From the IMG/VR virus record IMGVR_UViG_2706794682_000018: DNA of 16,334 nucleotides. The stretch is one strand, 5' to 3'. Numbering within the stretch: the first letter of the stretch is position 1; each line of letters begins with the position of its first letter. The notes under the pieces were generated by a model that saw nothing but the letters and a program-made list of their open reading frames with translations, had not been told where the DNA came from and did no database searches. Source of the stretch: a virus. Lineage: Duplodnaviria > Heunggongvirae > Uroviricota > Caudoviricetes. This document shows positions 1 to 16,334 of the stretch, one piece after another. The translations under genes were made by a program, and so were the position numbers.

Positions 1-465
1 AGACGGATACACACCTTTCGTACACTTTGCCCATACCGGCGGCTTACCATCCGGATACTGGATCTTGTTTGTAAAAACCTCGCTTTCAATAAATTTTTTT
101 CCGTGACAGCAGGGGCACTGTTTTTTGCTCGCCGCGCTACGGGCATAATCTTCAAACGCATACGAAGCCATAATACGCATCACTGCCGGTTTTATTTCTG
201 CCGGGAGTTTTCTTAACGCCGCCACGCGATCACACCGACTGAGTGCATATTCTGTCAGCAATTCTGTTGCCCGCTCTCTGTCATTCATACTAATGCCCAT
301 TTTCCCAAGGAACGCAGAAACCCCCATCTCAGCCCGATTCTGTGTCATGCCCTGCGCGGCCATCACATCAGTGATACTCAGCGCATCTTTCGACGTTGAG
401 GCCGATGCATCAGTCAGGCCGGGGGATTTTGGGGAGTAGTATTTCGGTAAATCTTCCAGTTTCAT
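1..465 (-). CDS. Late-gene antitermination protein Q, N-terminal 155 codons; 3' end lies beyond position 1
   Basis: Minus-strand ATG at 465-463, then 155 sense codons with no stop down to position 1 (checked codon by codon). Translation contains CPCCHGKK...C, a Q-type zinc-finger-like motif. Start overlaps the rusA stop (ATGA). Position after rusA matches lambdoid nin-Q modules. Confidence 0.7.
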   Translation of the reverse strand, partial: MKLEDLPKYYSPKSPGLTDASASTSKDALSITDVMAAQGMTQNRAEMGVSAFLGKMGISMNDRERATELLTEYALSRCDRVAALRKLPAEIKPAVMRIMASYAFEDYARSAASKKQCPCCHGKKFIESEVFTNKIQYPDGKPPVWAKCTKGVYPS

Positions 466-842
466 TTTTTGACCTGCCCTTCAAGCATTATGGGATAAAT
501 CTTCACCCCCAGACGTCCACCAGATACTGGCTGAGCACGAACGATATTGATTTCATCAAACTGCTCATCGTCCATTAGCAACCCCGCATGCGTCAGCGCA
601 TCCAGCGGCGCTTTCAGAATATTGTCCAGGTCACGGCGGCGCTTATCCGGTGGTTCTGCAATAATTTTTATTGCCAACCTTCCGGACAGGCTTAATTTCA
701 GCCGCTGCTGGCGAACAATAAGCGCCACTGCCCGGCGATAACGCTCCCCGGCTTTTGATACAAAATATGTGCTGCCACGACGACGCCAGTAAGTGTTCAC
801 CGTCGGCGGGTAAGGTAAAACAAATTCTATGCGCTCGGTCAT
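462..842 (-). CDS. rusA: Crossover junction endodeoxyribonuclease RusA (Holliday junction resolvase)
   Basis: 126-aa ORF with ATG at 842-840. Sequence (YPPTVNTYWRRRG ... RRRDLDNILKAPLDALTHAGLLMDDEQ) matches the RusA family as I recall it. Located just upstream of Q as in lambdoid prophages. Confidence 0.85.
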   Translation of the reverse strand: MTERIEFVLPYPPTVNTYWRRRGSTYFVSKAGERYRRAVALIVRQQRLKLSLSGRLAIKIIAEPPDKRRRDLDNILKAPLDALTHAGLLMDDEQFDEINIVRAQPVSGGRLGVKIYPIMLEGQVKK

Positions 843-1901
843 TTATGCTTTCCACTTCAGAACACCCGAATTTCTCGCGTGCATTAAAAAACGAATCAGC
901 AACAACAGCTGACTGCCGTGTTTCTCTTCAAAATCTTTTACTCCGGCATGTAGTTCGTTACGGCATTTACGGCATAACGGAATAACAAACAAATCATCAG
1001 CCTTTGTTCCCATCCCTCCCAGTCCATGACCAATGATGTGATGCGGATCATCTGCCTGATTGCCACACGTCATGCATTTCTGCGTTTTTACCCAGCGCGT
1101 GTATACAGGCATCTCTTCCCGTTGTGATTTCTGGCGCTGGAGATACTGAGCCGGTGACTCCGGATCAACGGCAATGCTGACCACCGTCTTTTCCTGTGGT
1201 GGGTTCTGTTGCTGGTGGACGTGAGGCAGTAACGCAATATTTTTTGTGCGCTGCTTCAGTATGCTGGTGGCTGTCTGCTCTCCCGGTATGATGTCGCTTT
1301 CACTGTACACAGAGCGAATTTTTTCCGCACGCAACCCCAGCGAACGACGTAATACCGCTTCCGGTAGCGCGTCCGCCACCTGATTGCGGACCGCCCACCA
1401 GGATAATTCAGCCAGAGATAATTCACGCTCCTGCGTACCGCTTATTGCGTGACCGATGACGTCAATCATCCATGCTGACAGGTTTTGATGAGCAAGTTGC
1501 TCGAGTGATTCGGATGTCTGGTCACGCAGCTGGTTGTCGCAGTGCCAGCACAACACCATTGCGCCGGTACCATAACGGTGAATGACGGTTTCGCTGTGAT
1601 GATAATCGCCGTGTGGCCACTGGCAGGATTTAATATGGCGCAACAGCCAGTCAGACAATGCACCAGCACCACCAGCAGCACGAATCACCCGTGCGTTACT
1701 GAAAAACGGCAGCAATGTTTTGTCTTCCACCAGCGGCTGGCGAGCGGCAGGAACGACCCCGGACGGCAGATTACGCATGCTTTTTGGTTCCGGCTCCACC
1801 AGTATTCTGCCGTTATGGAATGCTGACATTGATTCACGGCCTGGCTTAACGATAACCAGACCGAGTTCCGGTACCAGAACAGGTCGAAGTAATACCCGCA
1901 C
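843..1901 (-). CDS. DUF968-family prophage protein (YdfU-like) with C-terminal Cys/His motif
   Basis: 352-codon ORF whose stop abuts the rusA ATG (TAAATG). The longest ORF starts at GTG 1901-1899 with GGAGGT upstream; in-frame ATGs further in are alternatives. C-terminal C..C...HH...CRKCRNELH looks like an HNH-like zinc motif. Size and position next to Q resemble YdfU of Qin-type prophages (from memory). Confidence 0.7.
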   Translation of the reverse strand: MRVLLRPVLVPELGLVIVKPGRESMSAFHNGRILVEPEPKSMRNLPSGVVPAARQPLVEDKTLLPFFSNARVIRAAGGAGALSDWLLRHIKSCQWPHGDYHHSETVIHRYGTGAMVLCWHCDNQLRDQTSESLEQLAHQNLSAWMIDVIGHAISGTQERELSLAELSWWAVRNQVADALPEAVLRRSLGLRAEKIRSVYSESDIIPGEQTATSILKQRTKNIALLPHVHQQQNPPQEKTVVSIAVDPESPAQYLQRQKSQREEMPVYTRWVKTQKCMTCGNQADDPHHIIGHGLGGMGTKADDLFVIPLCRKCRNELHAGVKDFEEKHGSQLLLLIRFLMHARNSGVLKWKA

Positions 1902-1976
1902 ATTACCTCCAGATCCGTTGCTGGAATGTGCGGGACGGACGCGTTGGCCGTTCGGAGTAAGGGAGCCTGACGGAGA

Positions 1977-2258
1977 TTATCCAGTGACGGTAGTCGAGGC
2001 TAAGGGCTTTTTTAACCTCGCATCCGCGCCTGCGGTAACACTGAATGAGCCATTCGGCCTGTTCTTCAGTGCATGGGGGATGCTGGTACCAATCAGATTT
2101 AAATGCGTGAGAGCGCCGCCCGTGCCTGCTGGCAAAGACGGCTGAATTATCAGAATTGTGTAGTCTGGAAGGCAGTGGCTGACAATAGCGCCATTCTCAA
2201 CGCGCACAGTATAGAGGCCATCTTCACTAAAAATTTCACGTAATTCTTCGATTTTCAT
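1977..2258 (-). CDS. Small ORF, copy 1 (MKIEELREIFSEDGLYTVRVENGAIVSHC...); only the first ~29 codons are shared with copy 2; occupies the position of rem in Qin-type prophages
   Basis: ATG at 2258-2256 preceded by GGAAGGA 8 nt upstream. The first 29 codons are shared with the ORF at 3497, with 4 synonymous and 2 conservative changes. The C-terminal 64 aa is unique and low-complexity, so true length is uncertain. Confidence 0.35.
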   Translation of the reverse strand: MKIEELREIFSEDGLYTVRVENGAIVSHCLPDYTILIIQPSLPAGTGGALTHLNLIGTSIPHALKNRPNGSFSVTAGADARLKKPLASTTVTG

Positions 2259-2379
2259 CAACAGAATCCTTCCAGATAAATAGCACTCCCCTGTTCGGGG
2301 TCCATCCCTCTTCTCCCTGCGCGCTACTTAAGTATTTTTGATTCTATTCCGGCACCATCTAAAACTTCAAACGCGTTGA

Positions 2380-2410
2380 AAATAAAAACAAAAACCCGCC
2401 GAAGCGGGTT
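2380..2410 (-). terminator. Intrinsic terminator downstream of hok copy 1
   Basis: On the minus strand, stem CCCGC, loop TTCG, stem GCGGG (plus 2395-2408), followed by TTTTTGTTTTTATTTT. It lies about 70 nt after the hok stop. Confidence 0.6.
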
Positions 2411-2478
2411 AAGTGTGGGTGCATTGAGGATGCCTGCCCCATCAGAGGTGGCGAGGGATTTCTCCCCCGCCTGGTCTC

Positions 2479-2634
2479 TTACTCCTCAGGTTCGTAAGCT
2501 GTGAAGACAGCGACCTCCGTCTGGCCGGTTCGAATTCGTACCTCGCAGAGGTCTTTCCTCGTTACCAGTGCCGTCACTATGACGGTTAAACAGATGACGA
2601 TCAGGGCGATTAACATCGCCTTTTGCTGCTTCAT
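2479..2634 (-). CDS. hokD: Hok/Gef-family type I toxin, 51 aa (HokD/RelF-like membrane peptide)
   Basis: MKQQKAMLIALIVICLTVIVTALVTRKDLCEVRIRTGQTEVAVFTAYEPEE, which I recognise as the Hok family (hydrophobic helix plus conserved Cys). ATG at 2634-2632 with AAGGAG 9 nt upstream. The 70-aa ORF in the track is an in-frame upstream extension. Confidence 0.85.
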   Translation of the reverse strand: MKQQKAMLIALIVICLTVIVTALVTRKDLCEVRIRTGQTEVAVFTAYEPEE

Positions 2635-2693
2635 AGCCTGCTTCTCCTTGCCTTTCGGCATGTAAGAGGCTAACCTACATGTGCAAAGCATGA

Positions 2694-2783
2694 AATTGGC
2701 CTCAGATTAATGTTAAGCGTCTTGCCGGACGCGTAATGTTAACTGGGGCTTTTCTCTATCTGCCTTTTGGTGTTCATGCCTGA
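2694..2783. repeat. Inverted repeat arm A (90 bp, perfect), inside the hok copy 1 leader region
   Basis: Exact reverse complement of 2916-3005, verified base by base at both ends and at internal checkpoints. Pairing breaks at 2693/3006 and 2784/2915. Confidence 0.9.
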
Positions 2784-2915
2784 GACAGATAGCCTCAAGC
2801 ACCCGCTGCAATTCTACTTAACTCTCCTTTTCCCGCAAACCGTTTTTATCCCCAGCGGCAAATCGAATACACCACCAGCGCCACCGCCATCGCAATTCCT
2901 ACCGTTGTTAATGCT

Positions 2916-3005
2916 TCAGGCATGAACACCAAAAGGCAGATAGAGAAAAGCCCCAGTTAACATTACGCGTCCGGCAAGACGCTTAACATTAATCTGAGGC
3001 CAATT
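2916..3005. repeat. Inverted repeat arm B (90 bp, perfect), 132 bp from arm A
   Basis: Exact reverse complement of 2694-2783. It overlaps the last 17 nt of the minus-strand 60-aa ORF 2989-3171. Confidence 0.9.
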
Positions 3006-3171
3006 GCAGGAGTTTGAAAAAACGCTTGTGGAATGCGTAGTTACACACACGCTTAAAGTCTGCGTGTATCCACTCACCTATTTTGATTTGATGCAGAAAA
3101 TCGCAACTCTCCGGCGTCGCCGGGAGAAGTAATCCGGAAGAGGTTTGTTTGACCAGTTGTATATGTGCCAT
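2989..3171 (-). CDS. Hypothetical 60-aa ORF (MAHIQLVKQTSSGLLLPATPESCDFLHQIKIGEWIHADFKRVCNYAFHKRFFKLLQLASD)
   Basis: ATG at 3171-3169 with GGAGAAAG upstream. No family recognised. Its 3' end runs into inverted-repeat arm B. Confidence 0.2.
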   Translation of the reverse strand: MAHIQLVKQTSSGLLLPATPESCDFLHQIKIGEWIHADFKRVCNYAFHKRFFKLLQLASD

Positions 3172-3209
3172 CGGCTTTCTCCGGTGGCACGGTGTTACAC
3201 AGCAGGAGT

Positions 3210-3497
3210 TCAATCCTGCTCAAGATTGTAGATGAGTTTATTCTTCAGCAAAAGCAGAAAACCAGCCTTAAAACCAATCTCTTTCAAAACCCGTAATGAT
3301 GTGACAAATTCGTCCTCACGCAAAATAAAACCGTCCGTCAGAAGTCCATTACAAAAATAAAATAACACAGCACCGCTCTTCCTTTGTTGAGATTGCAAAC
3401 ATCTAATGCGGCAATGGCTGACAATCGCTCCATTCTCAACGCGCACAGCATAGAGGCCATTTTCACTAAAAATTTCACGCAATTCTTCGATTTTCAT
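3210..3497 (-). CDS. Small ORF, copy 2 (MKIEELREIFSENGLYAVRVENGAIVSHC...); shares only its first ~29 codons with copy 1
   Basis: ATG at 3497-3495 with the same GGAAGGA site as copy 1. The 162-bp block 3411-3572 is about 94 percent identical to 2172-2333. The C-terminal tail is unrelated to copy 1. Confidence 0.3.
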   Translation of the reverse strand: MKIEELREIFSENGLYAVRVENGAIVSHCRIRCLQSQQRKSGAVLFYFCNGLLTDGFILREDEFVTSLRVLKEIGFKAGFLLLLKNKLIYNLEQD

Positions 3498-3619
3498 CTT
3501 CAGAATCCTTCCAGATAAATAGCTCTCCCCTGTTCGGGGTCCATCCCTCTTCTCCCTGCGCGCTACTTAAGTGAGTCGATTCTATCTGCGAAGGTGCGCG
3601 AATCAAATTCACCGGAAAT

Positions 3620-3670
3620 AAACAACAAAAAACCCGCCGAAACGCTGAGAGATCACAGCGATGGGCGGGT
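3620..3670 (-). terminator. Intrinsic terminator of hok copy 2 (two-tier hairpin plus T-run)
   Basis: Outer stem CCCGCC/GGCGGG (3633-3638 / 3664-3669) with inner stem CGCTG/CAGCG, followed on the minus strand by TTTTTTGTTGTTTATTT. Homologous to the copy 1 terminator with an insertion in the loop. Confidence 0.5.
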
Positions 3671-3746
3671 TAAGTGCGGGTGCGTTGAGGATGCCTGACA
3701 CATCAGAGGTGGGCGGGGATGGGATCAGCTCCCCGCCCGGTCACTC

Positions 3747-4060
3747 TTACTTCCTGGNNNNNNNNNNNNNNNNNNNNNNNNNNNNNNNNNNNNNNNNNNN
3801 NNNNNNNNNNNNNNNNNNNNNNNNNNNNNNNNNNNNNNNNNNNNNNNNNNNNNNNNNNNNNNNNNNNNNNNNNNNNNNNNNNNNNNNNNNNNNNNNNNNN
3901 NNNNNNNNNNNNNNNNNNNNNNNNNNNNNNNNNNNNNNNNNNNNNNNNNNNNNNNNNNNNNNNNNNNNNNNNNNNNNNNNNNNNNNNNNNNNNNNNNNNN
4001 NNNNNNNNNNNNNNNNNNNNNNNNTGAAGCAGATAGCCTCAAGCACCCGCAGTCATTCTA
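3747..4060 (-). other. Second hok-family locus (paralogue of copy 1) whose coding region and leader are hidden by the N run 3758-4024
   Basis: 3661-3757 is homologous to the copy 1 hok 3' region 2410-2490. A stop TAA sits at 3749-3747 with ..RK just upstream. After the N run, 4025-4057 is homologous to copy 1 at 2780-2815 (CAGATAGCCTCAAGCACCCGC). Confidence 0.5.
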
Positions 4061-4105
4061 CTTACCTCGCCAATATGAAATCAATCAGAAAGGTGCCCCA
4101 TAAAA

Positions 4106-4792
4106 TCACTCCTTCTCTTCTTTACCGTAGTGGAGTTGACCAATTTTGATAAGAGGGCGTCCCTGAGATTTGCGGTGTAGATTGGTATCGCGCAGAGAAT
4201 ACACACAGCCACAATATTCCTGCTGATAGAATTTTTCGCGCTTGCTGATTTCAATCATACGGGACGAGCCGCCCTGCTTGCGCCAGTTATAATCCCAGTA
4301 CACCATGCCCGGATAATGCGCGACGGCTCGCCGCCCACAGTCGTTAACCTGCTGCATATTTTTCCAGCGTGAAATGCCCAGTGAACTGCTGATCACACTG
4401 AAACCATTTTCAGCGGCGTACAGCGCTGTCCGCTCAAAACGCATGTCAAAACACATGGTGCAACGGATCCCTCGTTCGGGCTCCCATTCCATTCCTTTGG
4501 CTCGTTCAAACCAGTTGTCTGTGTCGTAATCAGCATCAATAAACGGCACGCCGTGTTGTTCAGCAAAGCGAATATTCTCATCCTTACGAATTAAATACTC
4601 TTTCTGAGGATGAATGTTCGGGTTGTAGAAAAAGATGGTGTAGTCGATTCCCGAGGCCTGAAGCGCCTCCATCACCTCACCGGAACATGGAGCACAGCAA
4701 GAGTGCAGTAGTAGTTTGTTTGCCCCGTTTGGGAGCTCCAATTTGGGCCGTTTGAAATCAGCAACTGTCATAAATATGTTTATTGGGGTCAT
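4106..4792 (-). CDS. DUF208 / QueH-like (epoxyqueuosine reductase family) Cys-rich protein, 228 aa
   Basis: Clean 228-codon ORF. N-terminal [11 protein letters not shown] and FFYNPNIHP motifs, plus further Cys pairs (RCTMC, EYCGC), match my recollection of the DUF208/QueH family. The assignment is from memory, not a search. Confidence 0.5.
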
Positions 4793-4939
4793 AAAAATAT
4801 CAAAGAGTGTAGCATTAGAACGGGGCTATCGGAAACAGATGTGTGACTGCTCCCCGCCCTTTCGGGTGGTCTCCTGATGATTTGAGGGTGCAGAAATCCC
4901 TCCGGTTAAGGATTAAATTTTTAACAGTGCTAAATTTAA

Positions 4940-5296
4940 TTATTCAGTTCTGGATTTTGTCGCCCTGCGTATCCGCGCTTTCGCGTTACGCTCAATCTGT
5001 ATCAGCTTTTCTATATTTCTCCGCCTTTCCTGTTCCTCCTGGCGCAATAGCCTTACATCATCTGCCAGTCTGGTTTCTCTTTTTGCCACAGAGAGCATCC
5101 AGTCAAACGGCTCCACAACCGCACCGCAGATTTTACAGCGGACCTGACGCTCTTTTTCGTCAACCCGTACAGAGGCGTGATGGCAATATGGTCTTTCCGA
5201 TGGCTCATAAAGAAAATTAACCTGATTACGAGGGTCATCCTCTTTTACCGGAAATAAAACGATATTGCTTAACTCATCTTCTGGTTTTATTTCCAT
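4940..5296 (-). CDS. Hypothetical protein, 118 aa, Cys/His motif (CHH...CKIC) and basic coiled-coil-like C-terminus
   Basis: ATG at 5296-5294 preceded by AGGAGAGGAG. The track ORF extends upstream to 5353 but the internal ATG has the strong ribosome-binding site. No family recognised. Confidence 0.6.
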   Translation of the reverse strand: MEIKPEDELSNIVLFPVKEDDPRNQVNFLYEPSERPYCHHASVRVDEKERQVRCKICGAVVEPFDWMLSVAKRETRLADDVRLLRQEEQERRRNIEKLIQIERNAKARIRRATKSRTE

Positions 5297-5353
5297 GCTC
5301 CTCTCCTTTGATGCGAATGCCAGCGGTAATTGAAGCCTGATAGCTAATTTCAT

Positions 5354-5776
5354 TCACAGTATCGCCTCCTGAAAATTACCCTGATAGAAAGCCAGTACAC
5401 GCTGCATAGCTTCGCTCTTCCGGCACTCGCGACAGATTATATTCAGGCGCCTGTCGTAGCGGCGTATTTCTCCGTCAGGTAATGACCAGATAAGGTCCGG
5501 ATCAACAACAACCGGTTTCCTCACCTTTACTCTCGAGAGTTTTTTGCGGGCGCTTTGCCAGTCCTTGCGAGCCTGTTCAGACGGGAATAAGCCGTAGCCA
5601 GAATTATATACATCACCACTTGCGACCAGTTCTATGCATAAGCGACCGACAGACGCACGACTGATACCTGTTTCATCTGACAACTGCCGAATCGTGACCC
5701 GACCGTCCTGATGCACGAGTTCCACAATTCGCGTCTTCAGTTCTTCCCGCTGTTCGGGAGTAAAAGGTTTCGCCAT
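5354..5776 (-). CDS. Hypothetical DNA-binding protein, 140 aa, helix-turn-helix-like (TIRQLSDETGISRASVGRL)
   Basis: ATG at 5776-5774 with AGGAGG upstream. Lies immediately downstream of the DnaC-like gene on the same strand. Confidence 0.7.
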   Translation of the reverse strand: MAKPFTPEQREELKTRIVELVHQDGRVTIRQLSDETGISRASVGRLCIELVASGDVYNSGYGLFPSEQARKDWQSARKKLSRVKVRKPVVVDPDLIWSLPDGEIRRYDRRLNIICRECRKSEAMQRVLAFYQGNFQEAIL

Positions 5777-5790
5777 AAATCCTCCTGAAA

Positions 5791-6537
5791 CTACTTAACA
5801 ACCCTCGAATGGCTAACATTCGGACGCCAGCTCTCCCAGTTAAAATTCACCCAGCGCCCGCCGTTCATGACCATGCGATCCATCACCCGCTCGCCGAGCA
5901 ATGTTTTCATCACCTCATAGTTCAGGTTTGTCAGCATCCCCACGCTGCGCATCGACGCTGTCCGGCGATCAACAATCTGGTGCAGCACCACCTGCTCGTT
6001 TTTCGTCTCGCGCTGAATGCCAATTTCATCAAGAACCAGCAGATCCACTTCGCACAGCTCCCGCAAAAATTTTTCGCCTGACTGCCCGTCGTCATAGCTG
6101 GCGTGCAGGGCGCTCATAACATCAGCCACGGTAACCACAATCACTGTCTGACCGTCTTTCAGCAGGCGATTCCCGATAGCTGCCGCTAAGTGGTTCTTCC
6201 CGGTACCAGGTTTTCCGCTGAACGCAAAATTTGTACACCCGGTCATCAGTTCATCAGCGATGGATTTCGCCTGACTCAACGCGTATCGCTGCGCTTCGTT
6301 CTGCACCTGGTAATTCGAAAACGAGCATTTGCGGTGCAATGGCTGGATGCCAGAGCGATTCAGAATTTTTTCCACCCGCAACTGACGATTCTGACGGTTG
6401 ATCTCCTCACAACGTTTCTGGCCTTCGGAAAGTTGCCACTCGCGCCACTCCGCTACCGTCTTGAATGGCGCGGTTACATGTGACGGGGCCAGTCTGCGGA
6501 TACGTTCAAGAACGTCGCCTGTCGCAATATTTTTCAT
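5791..6537 (-). CDS. ydaV: DnaC-like replication protein / helicase loader (lambda P analogue)
   Basis: 248 aa with Walker A GKPGTGKNHLAAAIG and Walker B LLVLDEIG. AGGGGG site upstream; start 6 bp after the ydaU stop. Confidence 0.9.
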   Translation of the reverse strand: MKNIATGDVLERIRRLAPSHVTAPFKTVAEWREWQLSEGQKRCEEINRQNRQLRVEKILNRSGIQPLHRKCSFSNYQVQNEAQRYALSQAKSIADELMTGCTNFAFSGKPGTGKNHLAAAIGNRLLKDGQTVIVVTVADVMSALHASYDDGQSGEKFLRELCEVDLLVLDEIGIQRETKNEQVVLHQIVDRRTASMRSVGMLTNLNYEVMKTLLGERVMDRMVMNGGRWVNFNWESWRPNVSHSRVVK

Positions 6538-6543
6538 GGTCAG

Positions 6544-7401
6544 TTACCCCCTGAAGCCTGGCGGGATCGCACTATCCGGTAACGAGACGGTGTTAACCTG
6601 TCGGAGTAACGTCTCAGGTCGAACACCTTTCGGCGCGAACAAGCCCTGGTATTCATTGGCGATGCTGTGTCGAATCACCTGCTCAGGTGAAAAACCCTGC
6701 TGGCGGAATTTTTCCAGCTCCCGTATCGCCCCGTTAGCGCCCTGCTCCGTTCGAATCGGTTTTCGCAATGCCTGGCGAAATTCAACCCACTCACGCCAAA
6801 GCGAGACAGAAATCCAGTTCGGCAAAGCAATATCCAGAGGGTCAAACTTTTTGACACCTCGATTCCCCCGGGGGGGATTTAGGGGGGGATCTGTTTTTAG
6901 ATCTTTATCTGTATCTTTATTAGTTGCCTTTGTGTTGACATCATGTTCAAACACCACTTCAACATCTGTTTGAACACCTGTTAAATTTCTCTCTTGTTTT
7001 GTTTGAACATCTGCTTCCTTTCTGCTTCTTCTGGCCTGAACAGATGCTTTTCCTGCGGCTGATTTTTTGGTTAATTTTTCCCTGACTGATGCCAGATCTT
7101 CCTCAATCCGAAGATGCACCCATTCCTCGCCGTTATCGCAAAAAAACTCCTGCAAGGATGGTTCAACATCAGCCCATCGCTCGTTAGTCAGACGGGCAAT
7201 TTTTGCCAGCCTGTTTTTAGGTATTGGCTTTCCTGTTTGCCAGTAATTGAACATCAGCAACAAATACGCACCATGCTCCTCTGCTGACAAATGCATGGTG
7301 TCAGCCAGGTAATCAGCTATGTACAGTTGCATGTATGGTAATGCGGCCATAATTGCCCCGTATGATGCTGCCCGGTGGCTTAGAATAAGCACAAACAGCA
7401 T
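6544..7401 (-). CDS. ydaU: Replication initiation protein, DUF1376 (lambda O analogue)
   Basis: 285-codon ORF directly upstream of the DnaC-like gene; length matches recalled YdaU. Start codon uncertain (no clear ribosome-binding site at 7401). Confidence 0.8.
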   Translation of the reverse strand: MLFVLILSHRAASYGAIMAALPYMQLYIADYLADTMHLSAEEHGAYLLLMFNYWQTGKPIPKNRLAKIARLTNERWADVEPSLQEFFCDNGEEWVHLRIEEDLASVREKLTKKSAAGKASVQARRSRKEADVQTKQERNLTGVQTDVEVVFEHDVNTKATNKDTDKDLKTDPPLNPPRGNRGVKKFDPLDIALPNWISVSLWREWVEFRQALRKPIRTEQGANGAIRELEKFRQQGFSPEQVIRHSIANEYQGLFAPKGVRPETLLRQVNTVSLPDSAIPPGFRG

Positions 7402-7413
7402 GGAAACTTTTGC

Positions 7414-7836
7414 TTAATGAACAATGACAGAATCGTCGGAAGACCCGCCGCCGCTGAAATGCGCTTTCCGGTAAACGGCTTGGACTGCATCATCATGCGC
7501 ATCAATTGCCGTACTTAACGCTTCCTGCGCCGCCAGTAATGCACGGCGTTCCAGGGTATCGAAGATGCAGAGTCGGTGACGCAGCTCGCGCGGAAGGATT
7601 GCCAGAATTGCTGGGATCAGCTTCTGAATTTTTTCTCTTTGCGTTTTCGTTTCACCTTTCAACCAACGGTGATAGATATTCTGCTGATTATTCCAGTCCT
7701 TGCCTGGTACCAGGGGCAATTCGCCGCCCCCCTGGCGCAGATATTCTTCAGTAATGGCATTGGCTACCCATGCCTGCCCTTTTTCGGCTGCCAGGGCTAA
7801 CAACACTGACTCGATGTGCTCATGCTTGATTTTCAT
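7414..7836 (-). CDS. ydaT: Rac prophage YdaT-like protein (toxic when derepressed in K-12)
   Basis: 140 aa, ATG at 7836-7834 overlapping the ydaS stop (ATGA). Position and length as recalled for YdaT. Confidence 0.8.
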   Translation of the reverse strand: MKIKHEHIESVLLALAAEKGQAWVANAITEEYLRQGGGELPLVPGKDWNNQQNIYHRWLKGETKTQREKIQKLIPAILAILPRELRHRLCIFDTLERRALLAAQEALSTAIDAHDDAVQAVYRKAHFSGGGSSDDSVIVH

Positions 7837-8087
7837 GAATCAACTCCCATCAGCTTTTTCGTAGTAGTTTTATTTCTGCCAATAGTTAAAATTACATCAG
7901 CAGAAAATAATCCGTTTGATGCATGAGCGATTTTTTCAGCGTAATTTGTTTCGCCGGTATATTCTGTGCGAGGCAATTTTCCGTTATCCATCCATTTGTA
8001 GATTGCTCTTTGGCTGACACCACAAACGTCGGCCACAACAGAAACGCGAACAGTTTTGATTACATCTTCAAGTGTTTTCTGGTTCAT
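7833..8087 (-). CDS. ydaS: Cro-like helix-turn-helix regulator
   Basis: ATG at 8087-8085 with GAGGG upstream gives 84 aa (MNQKTLEDVIK...). The track ORF extends to a TTG at 8159 but that would run through the operator repeats. HTH segment VADVCGVSQRAIYKWMDNGKLP. Confidence 0.75.
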   Translation of the reverse strand: MNQKTLEDVIKTVRVSVVADVCGVSQRAIYKWMDNGKLPRTEYTGETNYAEKIAHASNGLFSADVILTIGRNKTTTKKLMGVDS

Positions 8088-8148
8088 ATCACCCTCACAA
8101 TGTGAACTTTGAGTACATGCTATAACAGAACTGACAGTACATTCAAGA
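8088..8148. promoter_or_regulatory. Divergent promoter/operator region between ydaS (cro-like) and racR (repressor)
   Basis: Two direct 15-bp repeats, GAACTTTGAGTACAT (8104-8118) and GAACTGACAGTACAT (8128-8142), spaced 24 bp apart. Candidate minus-strand promoter TTGAAT-N16-TATAGC overlaps them. Confidence 0.5.
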
Positions 8149-8586
8149 GTGAATATCATTGAACTTATGGTTCATGAAGATAAAGCGCGTAAAGAGTTCG
8201 CCAGTAGGCTTGCGCTAGCCTGTGAAAACGCTGGTTATGAACAACATGGAAGGCAGGCAGAAATTGCCCGTCGAATGAAATTAACACCAAAAGCGGTTAG
8301 CAAATGGTTTAATGGCGAAACAATTCCTCGCCGAGAGAAATTAAGGGAATTAGCAACACTCATTGGAACAACACCAACCTATCTTTTGGGAGAGGATACA
8401 GAAGAAAGTGGACAGGTACGTTTCTATCAGGAGTTAAATCCAAGACAAAAAATCATCATTGACCTTCTGGACGAGCTCCCTGACAGTGAGACAGATGAAC
8501 TTTTAAAAACTCTTGAGGAGAAAAAACAGAAGTACAATGCAATTTACGAAGAGCTAGCACGAAAGAAAAAACAAAAAGCCTCTTAA
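8149..8586 (+). CDS. racR: Prophage repressor, XRE-family helix-turn-helix (cI analogue)
   Basis: HTH GRQAEIARRMKLTPKAVSKWFNGE; divergent from the cro-like gene. Start uncertain: GTG 8149 or ATG 8167, neither with a clear ribosome-binding site (possibly leaderless, like lambda cI). Confidence 0.8.
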   Translation: MNIIELMVHEDKARKEFASRLALACENAGYEQHGRQAEIARRMKLTPKAVSKWFNGETIPRREKLRELATLIGTTPTYLLGEDTEESGQVRFYQELNPRQKIIIDLLDELPDSETDELLKTLEEKKQKYNAIYEELARKKKQKAS

Positions 8587-8654
8587 ACCAGCATAAATCC
8601 GGTAGCGTCCCCCTCCGGGTTTGTGCTTCACTTTATCCCATCTCATTTTTTTAC

Positions 8655-8715
8655 ACACAAAATGTACTTATAGTACTTTACATCAATGAACACAAAGTAC
8701 ATTATATACCTACCA
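8655..8715 (+). promoter_or_regulatory. Candidate left-operator/promoter region downstream of racR
   Basis: Third copy of the motif, GAACACAAAGTACAT (8688-8702), plus a palindrome GTACTTATAGTAC (8664-8676), in an AT-rich stretch with TTTACA and TATATA hexamers upstream of ydaG. Confidence 0.4.
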
Positions 8716-8876
8716 ACCCACCCCGCCCCACAGAACGCAGGGCAATACTTCGAGTTACCAGGCAGTGGTCAGGGGTTAAGTAGCCAGCCCGAGGCGTATG
8801 AACATGACGGCAGGGTTCAGATTTTGCAGTGCAGCAGGTTTCAGTTCCGCCACCCGGCGTTAAGGGGAGAGATAAG

Positions 8877-9011
8877 ATGGTGCATTACGAAGTAGTTCAG
8901 TATTTGATGGATTGTTGCGGTATCACTTACAACCAGGCTGTGCAGGCTTTACGCAGCAACGACTGGGATCTCTGGCAGGCAGAAGTCGCTATACACAGCA
9001 ACAAGATGTGA
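8877..9011 (+). CDS. ydaG: Small Rac prophage protein YdaG-like, 44 aa
   Basis: ATG at 8877 preceded by AGGGGAGA. MVHYEVVQYLMDCCGITYNQAVQALRSNDWDLWQAEVAIHSNKM. Length and position match recalled YdaG. Confidence 0.6.
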   Translation: MVHYEVVQYLMDCCGITYNQAVQALRSNDWDLWQAEVAIHSNKM

Positions 9012-9021
9012 GATTCGCAAA

Positions 9022-9177
9022 ATGCAAAAAATCGACCTCGGCAACAACGAATCCCTGGTGTGCGGCGTGTTCCCCAACCAGGATGGAACGTTCACTGCCA
9101 TGACGTATACCAAAAGCAAAACATTTAAAACCGAAACTGGTGCGCGCCGATGGTTGGAGAAGCACACAGTAAGCTAA
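9022..9177 (+). CDS. ydaF: Small Rac prophage protein YdaF-like, 51 aa (below the ORF-track length cut-off)
   Basis: Translated by hand: MQKIDLGNNESLVCGVFPNQDGTFTAMTYTKSKTFKTETGARRWLEKHTVS. Convergent with sieB, stops overlapping. Confidence 0.55.
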   Translation: MQKIDLGNNESLVCGVFPNQDGTFTAMTYTKSKTFKTETGARRWLEKHTVS

Positions 9178-9662
9178 CGATTAAAACGTCTACTCCTGCT
9201 GTTCCAGAATAACTTCATAAAATGGGAGTATTTTTCGGTGACGAGATAATAAGAACAGTTTGCGCTATCACTCTGATGTTGAATGATGCCCTTCCGTTCT
9301 AATTTTTTCATAACCGGGTTACGGCAAGGAGAAGTGATAATAAGATTTCCTGTTTTAAGGAAATCTTTAAATACAGCGATTTCTTTCTCAGATAAACGAA
9401 GCAATACTCGTTGCTCTGGTAGTAATGAATAATGCTTTTGAATATGTGCTCGCAATCTTGAGAAGGAAATGGCGACCACGAAAGAAAAGGCAAAAACGAT
9501 AATCTGAAAGAGCCAAGGTATTTCAGTATAAGCATTGAATGCGACAGTAAACTCTTTCGGTATCAGCCAGAGAGTGAGACCAAAAATGATAATCGTATAC
9601 ATAAGTATTTCGAGTGGCTCGTTAGCAAAAAGTTTCAACAATGGAGTAAATACATCCAACAT
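9174..9662 (-). CDS. sieB: Superinfection exclusion protein B
   Basis: 162 aa from ATG 9662-9660 (MLDVFTPLLKLF...), with hydrophobic membrane segments. The track ORF extends upstream to 9785. Position between ydaF and kilR as in Rac. Confidence 0.8.
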   Translation of the reverse strand: MLDVFTPLLKLFANEPLEILMYTIIIFGLTLWLIPKEFTVAFNAYTEIPWLFQIIVFAFSFVVAISFSRLRAHIQKHYSLLPEQRVLLRLSEKEIAVFKDFLKTGNLIITSPCRNPVMKKLERKGIIQHQSDSANCSYYLVTEKYSHFMKLFWNSRSRRFNR

Positions 9663-10103
9663 ATCAATAACTCTCAACTGTAAGGGTATTGAAATGTTAA
9701 CACAAGCTCTCGCTGTAGGGGTATAGCCGAGACCACCGAAGCCCGGAGGTGGTGAAATAAAACCGGGCACAACACGAAGGCGCATTTCCGATATCCATAA
9801 AGAGTCGGTCTTGTCTGTTAAATTTAAATGGTGGGAGTGCGCCTCCGGTTGTAAATAACGACATTGCTGTGTGTAGTCCTGGCGGCATCAGTTTTTTTCT
9901 TGAAGTTCGGCTGATGTCCGCCCTTTTTAAAGTGAATTTTGTGATGCGGTGAATGCGGCTAAGCGCACGTGGCACAGTTAAAAGTCATGTTAGTCCTTAT
10001 TGGTTTGGGTGGGAAAGCCGACTGTAATTGTTAACTGGTTGCAGTCACCTGGAGGCACCAGGCACCGCATCAACAAAGTTCATTTGTAAAAATGGAGATA
10101 ATT

Positions 10104-10153
10104 ATGATTGCACATCACTTCGGAACTGATGAAATACCACGTCAGTGTGTGAC
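10104..10153 (+). CDS. kilR: KilR-like (FtsZ inhibitor) N-terminal fragment; remainder in N run
   Basis: ATG at 10104 with GGAGA 5 nt upstream; MIAHHFGTDEIPRQCV. Position between sieB and racC. A 73-aa product would end at 10325, inside the N run. Confidence 0.45.
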
Positions 10154-10403
10154 NNNNNNNNNNNNNNNNNNNNNNNNNNNNNNNNNNNNNNNNNNNNNNN
10201 NNNNNNNNNNNNNNNNNNNNNNNNNNNNNNNNNNNNNNNNNNNNNNNNNNNNNNNNNNNNNNNNNNNNNNNNNNNNNNNNNNNNNNNNNNNNNNNNNNNN
10301 NNNNNNNNNNNNNNNNNNNNNNNNNNNNNNNNNNNNNNNNNNNNNNNNNNNNNNNNNNNNNNNNNNNNNNNNNNNNNNNNNNNNNNNNNNNNNNNNNNNN
10401 NNN

Positions 10404-10501
10404 TCACTTCATGCACGGGATTTTATCAAAAGACGAACCGAGAAAATATTGCAGTGAAGCTTGTGCCGAAAAAGACCAGATGGCACATGAACTTTAATTA
10501 A
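10404..10501 (+). CDS. C-terminal fragment of a small ORF (possibly YdaE-like); start lies in the N run
   Basis: Open frame from the N run to TAA 10499-10501 (...TSCTGFYQKTNRENIAVKLVPKKTRWHMNFN). A 56-aa gene ending here would start at 10331, six bases after the predicted kilR end. Confidence 0.3.
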
Positions 10502-10571
10502 TTGACTATTCGAAACTGAATTTATGCCAGAAATGGCAGGTATTCGCTCAACCTTAATTAAGGAGAAAAAC

Positions 10572-10847
10572 ATGATTACCAATTATGAAGCCACTGTTGT
10601 AACTACCGATGACATTGTTCACGAGGTGAATCTGGAAGGAAAGCGCATTGGCTACGTAATTAAAACAGAAAATAAAGAAACCCCATTCACTGTGGTTGAT
10701 ATCGATGGTCCATCAGGCAACGTAAAAACACTTGATGAAGGTGTCAAAAAAATGTGCCTGGTGCATATCGGAAAGAATCTGCCCGCAGAAAAAAAAGCCG
10801 AATTTCTGGCAACTCTAATTGCAATGAAATTAAAAGGTGAAATCTGA
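10572..10847 (+). CDS. racC: RacC-like protein, 91 aa
   Basis: ATG at 10572 with AAGGAG upstream (MITNYEATVVTTDD...). Directly upstream of recE. Confidence 0.8.
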   Translation: MITNYEATVVTTDDIVHEVNLEGKRIGYVIKTENKETPFTVVDIDGPSGNVKTLDEGVKKMCLVHIGKNLPAEKKAEFLATLIAMKLKGEI

Positions 10848-10948
10848 AAGAAATAGCCTGCGTATGGCGCAGGCTATGAACAGTGTGTATCCGGCAAGAT
10901 CATTCACTGAACAAAACGAATTTTAATCTGAGTTGAGGTTAAAAAACA

Positions 10949-13549
10949 ATGAGCACAAAACCACTCTTCCTGTTACGGAAAGCGAAAAAATCATCCGGTG
11001 AACCTGACGTCGTCCTGTGGGCAAGCAACGATTTTGAATCGACCTGTGCCACTCTGGACTACCTGATCGTTAAGTCAGGTAAAAAACTGAGCAGCTATTT
11101 TAAAGCTGTTGCCACGAATTTTCCTGTCGTTAATGACCTGCCCGCTGAAGGTGAGATCGATTTTACCTGGAGTGAACGCTATCAACTCAGCAAAGACTCC
11201 ATGACATGGGAACTAAAACCGGGAGCAGCACCAGACAACGCTCACTATCAAGGCAATACCAACGTCAACGGCGAAGACATGACTGAGATTGAGGAGAATA
11301 TGCTACTCCCAATTTCTGGCCAGGAACTGCCCATTCGTTGGCTTGCTCAACACGGCAGCGAAAAACCGGTAACGCACGTTTCACGCGACGGACTCCAGGC
11401 ATTACACATTGCTCGGGCTGAAGAACTACCGGCTGTTACTGCCCTGGCTGTTTCCCACAAAACCAGCCTGCTCGACCCGCTGGAAATTCGCGAACTCCAC
11501 AAACTGGTTCGTGACACTGACAAAGTTTTCCCTAATCCTGGTAATTCAAACCTGGGACTGATAACTGCTTTTTTCGAAGCATACCTGAACGCTGACTACA
11601 CCGATCGAGGACTGCTGACAAAAGAGTGGATGAAGGGTAATCGTGTTTCACACATCACTCGCACGGCTTCCGGTGCTAATGCTGGCGGCGGAAACCTCAC
11701 CGATCGCGGCGAAGGTTTCGTACACGATCTGACGTCACTGGCGCGGGACGTAGCCACTGGCGTACTGGCCCGTTCAATGGATCTGGACATCTATAACCTT
11801 CATCCGGCACACGCTAAACGCATTGAGGAAATTATCGCTGAAAATAAACCGCCCTTTTCTGTTTTCCGCGACAAATTCATCACCATGCCTGGCGGGCTGG
11901 ATTATTCCCGCGCCATCGTGGTTGCGTCCGTAAAAGAAGCACCAATTGGGATCGAGGTCATCCCCGCGCACGTCACTGAATATCTGAACAAAGTACTGAC
12001 TGAAACCGATCATGCCAACCCTGATCCGGAAATCGTGGATATTGCCTGCGGTCGCTCCTCTGCCCCGATGCCGCAGCGAGTAACAGAAGAAGGAAAACAG
12101 GATGATGAAGAAAAACCGCAACCATCTGGAACAACGGCAGTTGAACAGGGAGAGGCTGAAACAATGGAACCGGACGCAACTGAACATCATCAGGACACGC
12201 AGCCGCTGGATGCTCAGTCACAGGTAAATTCTGTTGATGCGAAATATCAGGAACTGCGGGCAGAACTCCATGAAGCCCGGAAAAACATTCCATCAAAAAA
12301 TCCTGTCGATGCCGATAAATTGCTTGCTGCATCACGTGGTGAATTTGTTGACGGAATTAGCGACCCGAACGATCCGAAATGGGTAAAGGGGATCCAGACT
12401 CGCGATTGTGTGTACCAGAACCAGCCAGAAACGGAAAAAACCAGCCCGGATATGAATCAACCTGAGCCAGTAGTGCAACAGGAACCGGAAATAGCCTGCA
12501 ATGCCTGCGGCCAGACTGGCGGGGATAACTGCCCTGACTGTGGTGCGGTGATGGGCGACGCAACATACCAGGAAACATTCGATGAAGAGAGTCAGGTTGA
12601 AGCTAAGGAAAATGATCCGGAGGAAATGGAAGGCGCTGAACATCCGCACAATGAGAATGCTGGCAGCGATCCGCATCGCGATTGCAGTGATGAAACTGGC
12701 GAAGTCGCAGATCCCGTAATCGTAGAAGACATAGAGCCAGGTATTTATTACGGAATTTCGAATGAGAATTACCACGCGGGTCCCGGTGTCAGTAAGTCTC
12801 AGCTCGATGACATTGCTGATACTCCGGCACTGTATTTGTGGCGTAAAAATGCCCCCGTGGACACCACAAAGACAAAAACGCTCGATTTAGGAACCGCTTT
12901 CCACTGCCGGGTACTTGAGCCGGAAGAATTCAGTAACCGCTTTATCGTAGCACCTGAATTTAACCGCCGGACAAACTCCGGAAAAGAAGAAGAGAAAGCG
13001 TTTCTGAGGGAATGCGCAAGCACAGGAAAAACGGTTATCACTGCCGAAGAAGGCCGGAAAATTGAACTCATGTATCAGAGCGTTATGGCTTTGCCGCTGG
13101 GGCAATGGCTTGTTGAAAGCGCCGGACACGCTGAATCATCAATTTACTGGGAAGATCCTGAAACAGCAATTTTGTGTCGGTGCCGTCCGGACAAAATTAT
13201 CCCTGAATTTCACTGGATCATGGACGTGAAAACTACGGCGGATATTCAACGATTCAAAACCGCTTATTACGACTACCGCTATCACGTTCAGGATGCATTC
13301 TACAGTGACGGTTATGAAGCACAGTTTGGAGTGCAGCCAACTTTCGTTTTTCTGGTTGCCAGCACAACTATTGAATGCGGACGTTATCCGGTTGAAATTT
13401 TCATGATGGGCGAAGAAGCAAAACTGGCAGGTCAGCTGGAATATCACCGCAATCTGCGAACCCTGGCTGACTGCCTCAATACCGATGAATGGCCAGCTAT
13501 TAAGACGTTATCACTGCCCCGCTGGGCTAAGGAATATGCAAATGACTAA
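10949..13549 (+). CDS. recE: Exodeoxyribonuclease VIII (RecE), 866 aa
   Basis: 866-codon ORF with an acidic, low-complexity middle region and a C-terminal nuclease domain. Its stop overlaps the recT start (ATGACTAA). Confidence 0.95.
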
Positions 13550-14351
13550 GCAACCACCAATCGCAAAAGCCGATCTGCAAAAAACTCAGGGAAACCGTGC
13601 ACCAGCAGCAATTAAAAATAACGACGTGATTAGTTTTATTAACCAGCCATCAATGAAAGAGCAACTGGCAGCAGCTCTTCCACGCCATATGACGGCTGAA
13701 CGTATGATCCGTATCGCCACCACAGAAATTCGTAAAGTTCCGGCGTTAGGAAACTGTGACACTATGAGTTTTGTCAGTGCAATCGTACAGTGTTCACAGC
13801 TCGGACTTGAGCCCGGTAGCGCCCTCGGTCATGCATATTTACTGCCTTTTGGTAATAAAAACGAAAAGAGCGGTAAAAAAAACGTTCAGCTAATCATTGG
13901 CTATCGCGGCATGATTGATCTGGCTCGCCGTTCAGGTCAAATCGCCAGCCTGTCAGCCCGTGTTGTCCGTGAAGGTGACGAGTTTAATTTCGAATTTGGC
14001 CTTGATGAAAAGTTAATACACCGCCCAGGAGAAAACGAAGATGCCCCTGTTACCCACGTCTATGCTGTCGCAAGACTGAAAGACGGAGGTACTCAGTTTG
14101 AAGTTATGACGCGCAAACAGATTGAGCTGGTGCGCAGCCAGAGTAAAGCTGGTAATAACGGGCCGTGGGTAACTCACTGGGAAGAAATGGCAAAGAAAAC
14201 GGCTATTCGTCGCCTGTTCAAATATCTGCCCGTATCAATTGAGATCCAGCGTGCAGTATCAATGGATGAAAAGGAACCACTGACAATCGATCCTGCAGAT
14301 TCCTCTGTATTAACCGGGGAATACAGTGTAATCGATAATTCAGAGGAATAA
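13542..14351 (+). CDS. recT: Single-strand annealing recombinase RecT, 269 aa
   Basis: ATG at 13542 ([16 protein letters not shown]...), overlapping the recE stop. Sequence recognised as RecT. Confidence 0.95.
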
Positions 14352-14406
14352 TTCAGCCTGGCGGTGTAATGCACCGCCAACTTGAAATATTTTTATGAGA
14401 AAAATT

Positions 14407-14556
14407 ATGAGATATGACAATGTTAAACCATGTCCATTTTGTGGTTGTCCATCAGTAACGGTGAAAGCCATTTCAGGATATTACCGAGCGAAGTGTAACG
14501 GATGCGAATCCCGAACCGGTTATGGTGGAAGTGAAAAAGAAGCACTCGAACGATGA
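14407..14556 (+). CDS. ralR: RalR/Lar-family type I toxin (restriction alleviation, DNase), truncated allele of 49 aa
   Basis: MRYDNVKPCPFCGCPSVTVKAISGYYRAKCNGCESRTGYGGSEKEALER then TGA at 14554-14556. Fourteen in-frame sense codons (NKRTTGNNNGGVHV) follow to TAA 14599-14601, matching the tail of the 64-aa K-12 protein as I recall it. Confidence 0.7.
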   Translation: MRYDNVKPCPFCGCPSVTVKAISGYYRAKCNGCESRTGYGGSEKEALER

Positions 14557-14593
14557 AATAAACGAACCACTGGAAATAATAATGGAGGTGTTC

Positions 14594-14782
14594 ATGTATA
14601 AAATTACCGCCACTATTGAAAAGGAAGGTGGCACTCCTACTAACTGGACAAGATATTCAAAATCTAAACTAACGAAATCAGAATGCGAAAAAATGCTCTC
14701 AGGTAAAAAAGAAGCAGGCGTTTCCAGAGAGCAGAAAGTAAAACTGATAAATTTTAATTGCGAGAAACTTCAGTCCTCGTGA
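14594..14782 (+). CDS. ydaC: YdaC-like small protein, 62 aa
   Basis: ATG at 14594 preceded by GGAGGTG (MYKITATIEKEGG...). Upstream in-frame ATGs at 14582 and 14522 are alternatives. Confidence 0.65.
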   Translation: MYKITATIEKEGGTPTNWTRYSKSKLTKSECEKMLSGKKEAGVSREQKVKLINFNCEKLQSS

Positions 14783-14881
14783 ATTGCATTGTATTCAAAT
14801 TAAAACTTCATAGCTGATTATTAATAATCAACATCGGGCGTCAATTTAAGTCTAACATTGGCGCCTGCCAGAGGTGATGCG

Positions 14882-15097
14882 ATGGCACAAGTAATCTTTA
14901 ATGAAGAGTGGATGGTTGAATACGGCCTGATGCTTCGCACTGGTCTGGGGGCCAGACAAATTGAAGCATACCGCCAGAACTGTTGGGTGGAAGGCTTCCA
15001 CTTCAAACGAGTATCTCCTTTAGGGAAGCCAGACAGTAAGCGAGGGATTATCTGGTATAACTATCCAAAGATAAATCAGTTTATCAAAGACTCATGA
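14882..15097 (+). CDS. xisR: Excisionase-like protein, 71 aa
   Basis: ATG at 14882 with GAGGTGA upstream ([15 protein letters not shown]...). Immediately precedes the integrase with a 1-bp gap. Confidence 0.7.
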
Positions 15098-15098
15098 T

Positions 15099-16334
15099 AT
15101 GTCTAAATTACCAACAGGTGTCGAGATTCGAGGTAAATACATTCGCATCTGGTTCATGTTTCGAGGAAAACGATGTCGGGAAACATTGAAAGGCTGGGAG
15201 GTTACTAACAGTAACATTAAAAAAGCCGGGAATTTAAGAGCGTTGATAGTTCATGAAATCAATTCCGGTGAGTTTGAGTATTTAAGACGTTTTCCCCAGT
15301 CCAGCACTGGGGCAAAAATGGTGACAACGAGGGTCATAAAAACGTTCGGGGAGCTTTGTGATATCTGGACAAAAATTAAAGAAACAGAGTTAACAACAAA
15401 CACAATGAAGAAAACGAAATCACAATTAAAAACACTCAGGATAATAATTTGTGAGAGTACTCCGATATCGCATATTCGTTATAGCGATATCTTAAACTAC
15501 CGGAATGAACTGCTGCATGGAGAAACGCTTTACCTGGATAATCCAAGATCCAACAAAAAAGGAAGAACCGTGCGCACAGTTGATAACTATATCGCCCTGC
15601 TCTGTTCGTTGTTACGTTTTGCGTATCAGTCGGGATTTATATCAACCAAACCATTTGAAGGAGTAAAGAAATTACAGAGAAACAGAATAAAGCCTGACCC
15701 GTTATCTAAAACAGAATTCAATGCATTAATGGAAAGTGAAAAAGGACAGAGCCAGAACTTGTGGAAATTTGCCGTATACTCCGGGCTTCGTCACGGGGAA
15801 CTGGCTGCTCTGGCGTGGGAGGATGTGGATTTCGAGAAGGGAGTTGTGAATGTCAGAAGAAACCTGACGATACTGGATATGTTCGGTCCCCCAAAAACAA
15901 ATGCGGGGATCCGGACGGTAACACTACTGCAGCCTGCTCTTGAAGCACTGAAGGAGCAATACAAACTGACCGGGCATCATCGCAAAAGCGAAATCACTTT
16001 TTATCATCGGGAGTACGGCAGAACCGAAAAGCAAAAACTGCATTTTGTTTTCATGCCCAGAGTGTGTAACGGAAAACAGAAACCTTATTACTCGGTAAGC
16101 AGTTTGGGTGCGAGATGGAATGCAGCAGTAAAACGTGCTGGTATTCGCCGCCGTAATCCGTACCATACGCGGCATACTTTTGCCTGCTGGCTGTTGACGG
16201 CAGGAGCGAACCCGGCGTTTATAGCCAGCCAGATGGGGCATGAAACTGCGCAGATGGTGTATGAAATTTACGGTATGTGGATTGATGACATGAACGACGA
16301 ACAGGTAGCCATGTTGAATGCGCGGTTATCGTAG
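15099..16334 (+). CDS. intR: Tyrosine site-specific integrase, 411 aa
   Basis: Catalytic residues in RHGELAALAWEDVD, HTRHTFACWLL and YEIYGMW. TAG stop at 16332-16334 is the last codon of the window, so the attachment site lies outside. Confidence 0.9.
   Translation: MSKLPTGVEIRGKYIRIWFMFRGKRCRETLKGWEVTNSNIKKAGNLRALIVHEINSGEFEYLRRFPQSSTGAKMVTTRVIKTFGELCDIWTKIKETELTTNTMKKTKSQLKTLRIIICESTPISHIRYSDILNYRNELLHGETLYLDNPRSNKKGRTVRTVDNYIALLCSLLRFAYQSGFISTKPFEGVKKLQRNRIKPDPLSKTEFNALMESEKGQSQNLWKFAVYSGLRHGELAALAWEDVDFEKGVVNVRRNLTILDMFGPPKTNAGIRTVTLLQPALEALKEQYKLTGHHRKSEITFYHREYGRTEKQKLHFVFMPRVCNGKQKPYYSVSSLGARWNAAVKRAGIRRRNPYHTRHTFACWLLTAGANPAFIASQMGHETAQMVYEIYGMWIDDMNDEQVAMLNARLS

Follow-up and report, generated by a model that had tools for sequence, protein, structure and literature searches.

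Results

Organization of the locus

The DNA analyzed here is a stretch of 16,334 nucleotides, to which we refer as the window, and its last base is exactly the end of the intR stop codon. The genes at this end are arranged in the order recT, ralR, rcbA/ralA, xisR and intR, which is also their order in the Rac prophage of Escherichia coli K-12. recT ends at position 14351, and the ralR open reading frame lies between it and xisR/intR. The features that we could assign are listed in Table 1. A sequence-only reading had taken this locus to be the RalR/RalA type I toxin-antitoxin pair, and the presence of an intact RalA gene confirms that assignment. tblastn found no second copy of ralR in the window.

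The recE-intR end of the window is near-identical in many genomes. Over its whole length, the best complete E. coli genome covers 76-78% of the window and the best phage record 64%, and none of the complete E. coli genomes and phage records searched covers 80% or more of positions 1-16334. Because of this, the window is, as judged from these alignments, a mosaic Rac-like prophage. It also carries a type I toxin-antitoxin locus of the hok/sok type on the minus strand (2479-2804), and a gene for the tRNA-modification enzyme QueH is found within the neighbourhood of the prophage replication region.

Table 1. Positions of the assigned features in the 16,334-nt window
Feature	Position	Strand	Description
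Hok/Gef ORF	2479-2691	-	70-aa mok-type frame; Pfam PF01848, 81.7 bits
Sok antisense RNA	2629-2804	-	Rfam RF01794, 117.5 bits
QueH (epoxyqueuosine reductase)	4106-4792	-	228-aa ORF; full-length PF02677 match, 220 bits
Truncated ralR ORF	14407-14556	+	ATG 14407, 49 sense codons, TGA 14554-14556
16-nt RalA pairing site in ralR mRNA	14529-14544	+	AAGTGAAAAAGAAGCA; codons for GSEKEA; site as in PMC4041452
Arg49 codon, CGA	14551-14553	+	AGA in K-12; synonymous; linked to the TGA allele
Premature stop codon TGA, codon 50	14554-14556	+	TGG (Trp) in K-12; variant base 14556, A for G
Untranslated remainder of ralR	14557-14601	+	14 codons, NKRTTGNNNGGVHV, and the original TAA; 100% identical to K-12
rcbA/ydaC (DUF1187), 62 aa	14594-14782	+	Pfam PF06688, 132 bits, profile 1-61 of 61
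RalA antitoxin sRNA	14600-14778	-	Rfam RF02694, 225.1 bits (gathering 170), model 1-179 of 179
16-nt repeat in RalA that pairs with ralR mRNA	14701-14716	-	plus strand AGGTAAAAAAGAAGCA

The ralR reading frame is interrupted at codon 50

Translation of the ralR frame gives MRYDNVKPCPFCGCPSVTVKAISGYYRAKCNGCESRTGYGGSEKEALER, a stop codon, NKRTTGNNNGGVHV and a second stop codon, the TAA at 14599-14601, which falls within the opening three codons of the open reading frame that follows (ATG 14594, product beginning MYKITATIEK). In K-12 MG1655, ralR (b1348) is 195 nt long and encodes 64 amino acids ending in EALERWNKRTTGNNNGGVHV and a stop. The window is identical to it at 193 of the 195 nt, and the two differences are C14551 (CGA instead of AGA, both Arg49) and A14556, which turns Trp50 into a stop codon (W50stop). 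An open run of 14 codons past a stop is expected by chance with a frequency of about 0.39 at the local base composition, so the openness of the tail is not significant by itself, and its homology is established by the identity to K-12 at 42 of 42 nt. These results agree with what had been proposed from the sequence alone, namely, that the TGA at codon 50 interrupts ralR, that 14 more sense codons follow in frame before a TAA that overlaps the start of ydaC, that this tail is the C terminus of the 64-residue K-12 RalR and that a TGG-to-TGA nonsense change is responsible. The K-12 reference protein does not end at codon 50 but runs to residue 64, and the alignment of 14407-14601 to K-12 ralR, which had been suggested as a check, contains W50stop as one of its two differences. 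Only the base singled out for inspection was wrong: position 14555 is a G in both alleles, and the variable base is 14556.

RalA and rcbA are intact

The RalA interval shows no differences from K-12. RalA is encoded beside ralR on the opposite strand, antisense to rcbA. Pairing between RalA and the ralR mRNA is mediated by two 16-nt repeats (PMC4041452), and both were recovered in the window. The two repeats match at 14 of 16 positions, 11 of them contiguous, where shuffled sequences are expected to give 0.03 such matches. The site in ralR is intact, and it ends 9 nt ahead of the premature stop codon. The predicted fold energy of RalA is no better than that of shuffled sequences (z = -0.26) and adds nothing to the Rfam match.

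The rcbA start codon lies 37 nt past the premature stop codon, and it is preceded at a distance of 5 nt by a Shine-Dalgarno sequence, GGAGG (14584-14588). Having this site of its own, rcbA should be translated without the help of ribosomes coming from ralR. In matching genomes, the rcbA product is the DUF1187 family protein WP_001302840.1. A scan of 14200-15100 for terminators gave none.

A side observation concerns the length of rcbA. In the window it stops at TGA 14780-14782 after 62 codons, whereas K-12 has AGA there and its frame runs to 69 codons. The 62-residue form matches the 61-position DUF1187 profile end to end and is also encoded in genomes with the TGG allele of ralR, and because it occurs in those genomes too, the 69-residue K-12 protein appears to be a stop-loss extension. 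The variable base, 14780, is situated 2 nt upstream of the 5' end of RalA.

What the truncation removes from RalR

The 49-residue product keeps the CxxC...CxxC zinc ribbon (C9, C12, C30 and C33), and it is still recognized by the relevant protein profiles. With the RalR equivalog NF007260 of NCBIfam, it scores 126.9 bits over profile positions 1-49 of 64, compared to 166 bits for the 64-residue form, a loss of 39 bits. As the cutoff is 113, the PGAP pipeline still names the short form RalR. With Pfam PF14354 (Lar_restr_allev), the truncation costs 14.5 bits (39 bits over positions 2-52 of 58, against 53.5 bits over 2-58), and the threshold is 28.6. The score with TIGR03655 is marginal, at 40.3 against a threshold of 39.6. 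The short form thus shares the CPFCG...C..C zinc ribbon of the Lar family (PF14354, TIGR03655) and passes the family thresholds, but it lacks the C-terminal W-N-x-R motif that is invariant in this family.

To determine the conservation of that motif, 1.84 billion representative proteins were scanned with HMMER, which returned 1690 relatives, and a set of 60 single-domain Lar proteins was examined, drawn from 50%-identity clusters and sharing 33-77% identity with the query. Eight positions, and no others, are invariant in all 60: C9, P10, F11, C12, C30, C33, W50 and N51. A further residue, R53, is shared by 59 of them. The first six of the invariant residues are all retained in the 49-residue form, and the C-terminal helix with its W-N-x-R motif is not, since the TGA replaces W50 and translation does not reach N51 or R53. 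In an AlphaFold2 model of a 64-residue homologue, built on the 60-sequence alignment (pLDDT 78), a beta-hairpin at residues 17-30 carries the zinc ligands and a helix spans 43-54. The predicted helix adjoins the zinc ribbon, and the stop codon would cut it at residue 49, deleting W50, N51, K52 and R53. A sequence search for a solved structure of a relative gave only spurious matches to CbpD. A Foldseek search of the PDB returned nothing at an E value of 0.001 or below and nothing resembling a nuclease; there were weak likenesses to the zinc ribbons of ELOF1, Pol III C11 and eIF2-beta.

Published mutants cover the same region. Changes obtained by error-prone PCR at residues 14, 37, 39, 49, 51 and 52 lower the toxicity of RalR, and a purified RalR protein mutated at residue 52 does not cleave DNA (Guo et al. 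2014, PMC4041452). Two of these six residues, 51 and 52, are past the stop codon and are missing from the short form.

Polarity and origin of the TGA allele

Full-length homologues from Salmonella and Citrobacter have RWNKR or RWNRR at the site of codon 50. Among the GTDB species representatives, all six matches to the 30-mer read AGA TGG (they come from E. ruysiae, S. flexneri, E. coli and two MAG contigs), and in a scan of these representatives only TGG, and not the TGA allele, was found. As the Salmonella and Citrobacter homologues, the 60 Lar relatives and the GTDB representatives all keep Trp50, these comparisons place TGG as the ancestral state and TGA as the derived one, in line with the direction of change that had been proposed.

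When six TGA loci from unrelated strains were compared, only one site varied among them in about 520 nt. Three linked differences set all six apart from K-12 and APEC O1: C14551, A14556 and a T-run that is one base shorter. This T-run (14389-14394) lies between the hairpin next to recT and the start of ralR, and its shorter form accompanies the TGA allele at each of the six loci compared. Strain 99-3311 has the intermediate combination, CGA TGG. The six identical haplotypes fit a single origin of the allele followed by its spread.

Several other lesions of ralR were found in public data, and they are independent of the TGA allele: a frameshift (P0005), two fusions of ralR to rcbA (P0012 and P0015) and a W50S change (P0002). 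The last, TGG to TCG in a Logan-derived variant that stands for 26 member sequences, shows that the invariant tryptophan has been changed a second time independently. In the P0015 fusion, ralR sequence up to ...SEKE is followed by rcbA from about codon 11. In P0012, the junction follows ...SEKEA, at the 16-nt direct repeat common to ralR and rcbA/ralA, and this suggests that the repeats recombined with each other, an event that would delete the 3' end of ralR together with most of ralA. Taken together, these lesions are consistent with relaxed or negative selection on the toxin and with ongoing decay in cryptic prophages. One of the TGA strains, E. coli GPEC1446 (L005, 855-2337), has an IS1 element between truncated ydaU and recT fragments and a frameshifted xisR. 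Since its Rac region is further decayed, the TGA haplotype occurs in prophages at different stages of erosion.

Frequency of the allele

The exact 81-nt haplotype around the stop codon is present in 308 of 5426 complete E. coli genomes, and the K-12 version of the same segment is present in 1110. About 1900 of the complete genomes have a ralR-like region, so that the TGA haplotype accounts for about 6% of all complete E. coli genomes and about 16% of those with ralR. Its carriers include O157:H7 EDL933, STEC of serogroups O26, O103 and O111, clinical ESBL strains, and isolates from poultry and wastewater, and it is also found in three records of Rac-like phages (ON470614, ON470616 and ON470590). 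The exact 49-residue protein occurs in at least 1000 contigs of a large protein collection. In RefSeq it is WP_001443846.1, annotated as 'type I toxin-antitoxin system endodeoxyribonuclease toxin RalR' and carrying no pseudogene flag. At loci with WP_001443846.1, such as those of EDL933 and the O26, O103 and O111 STEC strains, neither the protein nor the surrounding 299 nt differs from the window. Nothing is different at the ralR locus of these carriers; the remainder of the window is a different mosaic. The allele is thus common across unrelated serotypes and is already catalogued, both in RefSeq and in the EDL933 reference genome, and for this reason the read support that had been asked for as a check is not the point at issue. 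A literature search for truncated RalR, judged by titles and abstracts, gave no paper on the 49-residue allele.

Discussion

The base change in ralR and its polarity, the frequency of the allele, the conservation of the motif that is lost and the intact state of RalA are direct observations. What they probably describe, and we hold this view with good confidence, is a naturally occurring allele in which ralR, the type I toxin gene of the Rac prophage, has lost its function and RalA is left as an orphan. A single G-to-A transition at the third base of the Trp50 codon (14556) would have arisen once, on a background with CGA for Arg49. Translation would then end after 49 residues, so that the four-cysteine zinc ribbon is kept while the second half of the C-terminal helix and the W-N-x-R motif are lost, and with them, presumably, both toxicity and DNase activity. 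The resulting single haplotype would have spread across unrelated serotypes and into some Rac-like phage records. Based on the published point mutants and on the conservation within the family, the 49-residue RalR is most likely neither toxic nor active as a DNase, because two of the six positions known to be important and the most conserved motif outside the zinc ligands lie past the stop codon. The earlier suggestion that the toxin may be inactivated thus has good, if indirect, support. RalA and the overlapping gene rcbA are unchanged, as is the 16-nt site targeted by RalA. As the toxin is most likely dead while these elements are unchanged, RalA is most likely left as an orphan antitoxin.

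Some observations do not sit easily with a complete loss of function. RefSeq and PGAP give the gene no pseudogene flag, and the short form scores above the curated cutoffs for RalR and Lar. The zinc ribbon is intact, so that a residual or different activity is conceivable. A UGA codon that is leaky and read by Trp-tRNA would restore exactly the wild-type protein, and the null may therefore be incomplete. Finally, all the TGA copies that were examined are identical past the stop codon, and the tail gives no signal of decay that would prove its release from selection.

One possibility is that the zinc ribbon alone is sufficient and the 49-residue peptide is a functional short isoform, active as a toxin, in alleviating restriction (the phenotype first known for Lar) or in another way. 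It is annotated as intact ralR and passes the cutoffs of NF007260, PF14354 and TIGR03655, the allele is common (308 complete genomes), and the four cysteines and the predicted beta-hairpin at 17-30 are retained. We nevertheless regard this as unlikely. Three of the residues that are lost, W50, N51 and R53, belong to the ten most conserved positions of the family, and single substitutions at residues 49, 51 and 52 are already enough to lower toxicity, the residue-52 mutant being without DNase activity (PMC4041452). The TIGR03655 cutoff is passed by only 0.7 bits. The carriers, moreover, all have one identical haplotype, which argues for hitch-hiking by descent rather than repeated selection. 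In the literature on restriction alleviation by Lar, we found no data on the C terminus.

It is also possible, and in our view quite unlikely, that the allele encodes an attenuated toxin through leaky termination. Trp-tRNA would read UGA50 at a low rate, full-length RalR would be made, and its dosage would be lowered and diversified. In a K-12 reporter, Trp-tRNA competes with RF2 for UGA and readthrough reaches about 2% at 37°C and 4% at 25°C, with variation from cell to cell (PMC10570021). Tryptophan is the ancestral residue, and both the 14 codons past the stop and the TAA have been preserved. On the other hand, there is no sign of a recoding signal, and the preservation of the tail in all copies is simply a consequence of their being one recent haplotype. 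The RF2 of K-12 is an unusually weak variant, and less readthrough is to be expected in wild strains. With RalA already repressing the toxin, a reduction of 50- to 1000-fold would come close to a functional null. An elaboration of the same idea starts from the dependence of Trp-tRNA readthrough in E. coli on temperature and cAMP and from its variation from cell to cell. UGA50 would act as a tunable leak and yield full-length RalR in a small fraction of translation events, so that a lethal DNase toxin would be supplied stochastically at a low dose, for bet-hedging or SOS priming and still under the control of RalA. This would explain the retention of the downstream codons, the pairing site and RalA, and yet we consider it very improbable.

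We give hardly any credence to the possibility that the W50stop change was selected for its effect on rcbA, either by uncoupling its translation from that of ralR or by improving a -35-like hexamer. The change converts ATGGAA into ATGAAA (14553-14558), which adds one match to the -35 consensus, now 4 of 6. In a scan for promoter-like sites, this hexamer, a 16-nt spacer and AATAAT (14575-14580) together give 9 of 12 matches. However, five such sites were found where shuffled sequences have 2.6 ± 1.5, which is not significant, the strong GGAGG 5 nt from the rcbA ATG belongs to rcbA itself, and nothing indicates that rcbA expression depends on the allele. That the stop codon is a sequencing or assembly error, with G as the true base at 14556, has nothing beyond a priori possibility in its favor and is rejected with practical certainty, because an identical haplotype, with A14556, the linked C14551 and the shorter T-run, is shared by 308 complete assemblies made independently and by three phage records.

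The probable loss-of-function allele is best compared with the RalR/RalA system of the K-12 Rac prophage itself (b1348; PMC4041452). The position of the locus is the same, and RalA and both 16-nt repeats are identical. K-12 RalR has TGG50 and 64 residues, whereas the product of the window has TGA50 and lacks residues 50-64. The upstream T-run is one base longer in K-12, and rcbA has 69 codons there, as opposed to the shorter T-run and the 62 codons of the window. A looser analogy may be drawn with other type I toxin loci that have decayed, for instance the hok-like genes that are inactive in E. coli K-12 (PMC4041452), where the toxin is disabled and the locus and its antisense RNA persist. The likeness is limited, as those loci were inactivated by IS insertion or rearrangement and encode a membrane peptide, whereas here a single nonsense codon affects a soluble zinc-ribbon toxin. 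RalA, unlike the antitoxins of the hok-like loci, acts in trans and overlaps another gene. Seen in this way, the finding is one of ordinary decay of a toxin gene in a cryptic prophage, by an allele that is already known in databases.

The practical value of this allele is modest and consists mainly in a caveat for annotation, and it opens no new biological question. In hundreds of genomes, EDL933 among them, annotation pipelines treat the 49-residue product as intact and name it 'endodeoxyribonuclease toxin RalR'. As the toxin is most likely dead, counts of 'functional' type I toxin-antitoxin systems in pathogenic E. coli would be inflated. For the Lar family, the allele provides a natural truncation mutant, which can show whether the W-N-x-R motif is essential. 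It can also show whether RalA, being antisense to rcbA, has a role that is independent of the neutralization of RalR.
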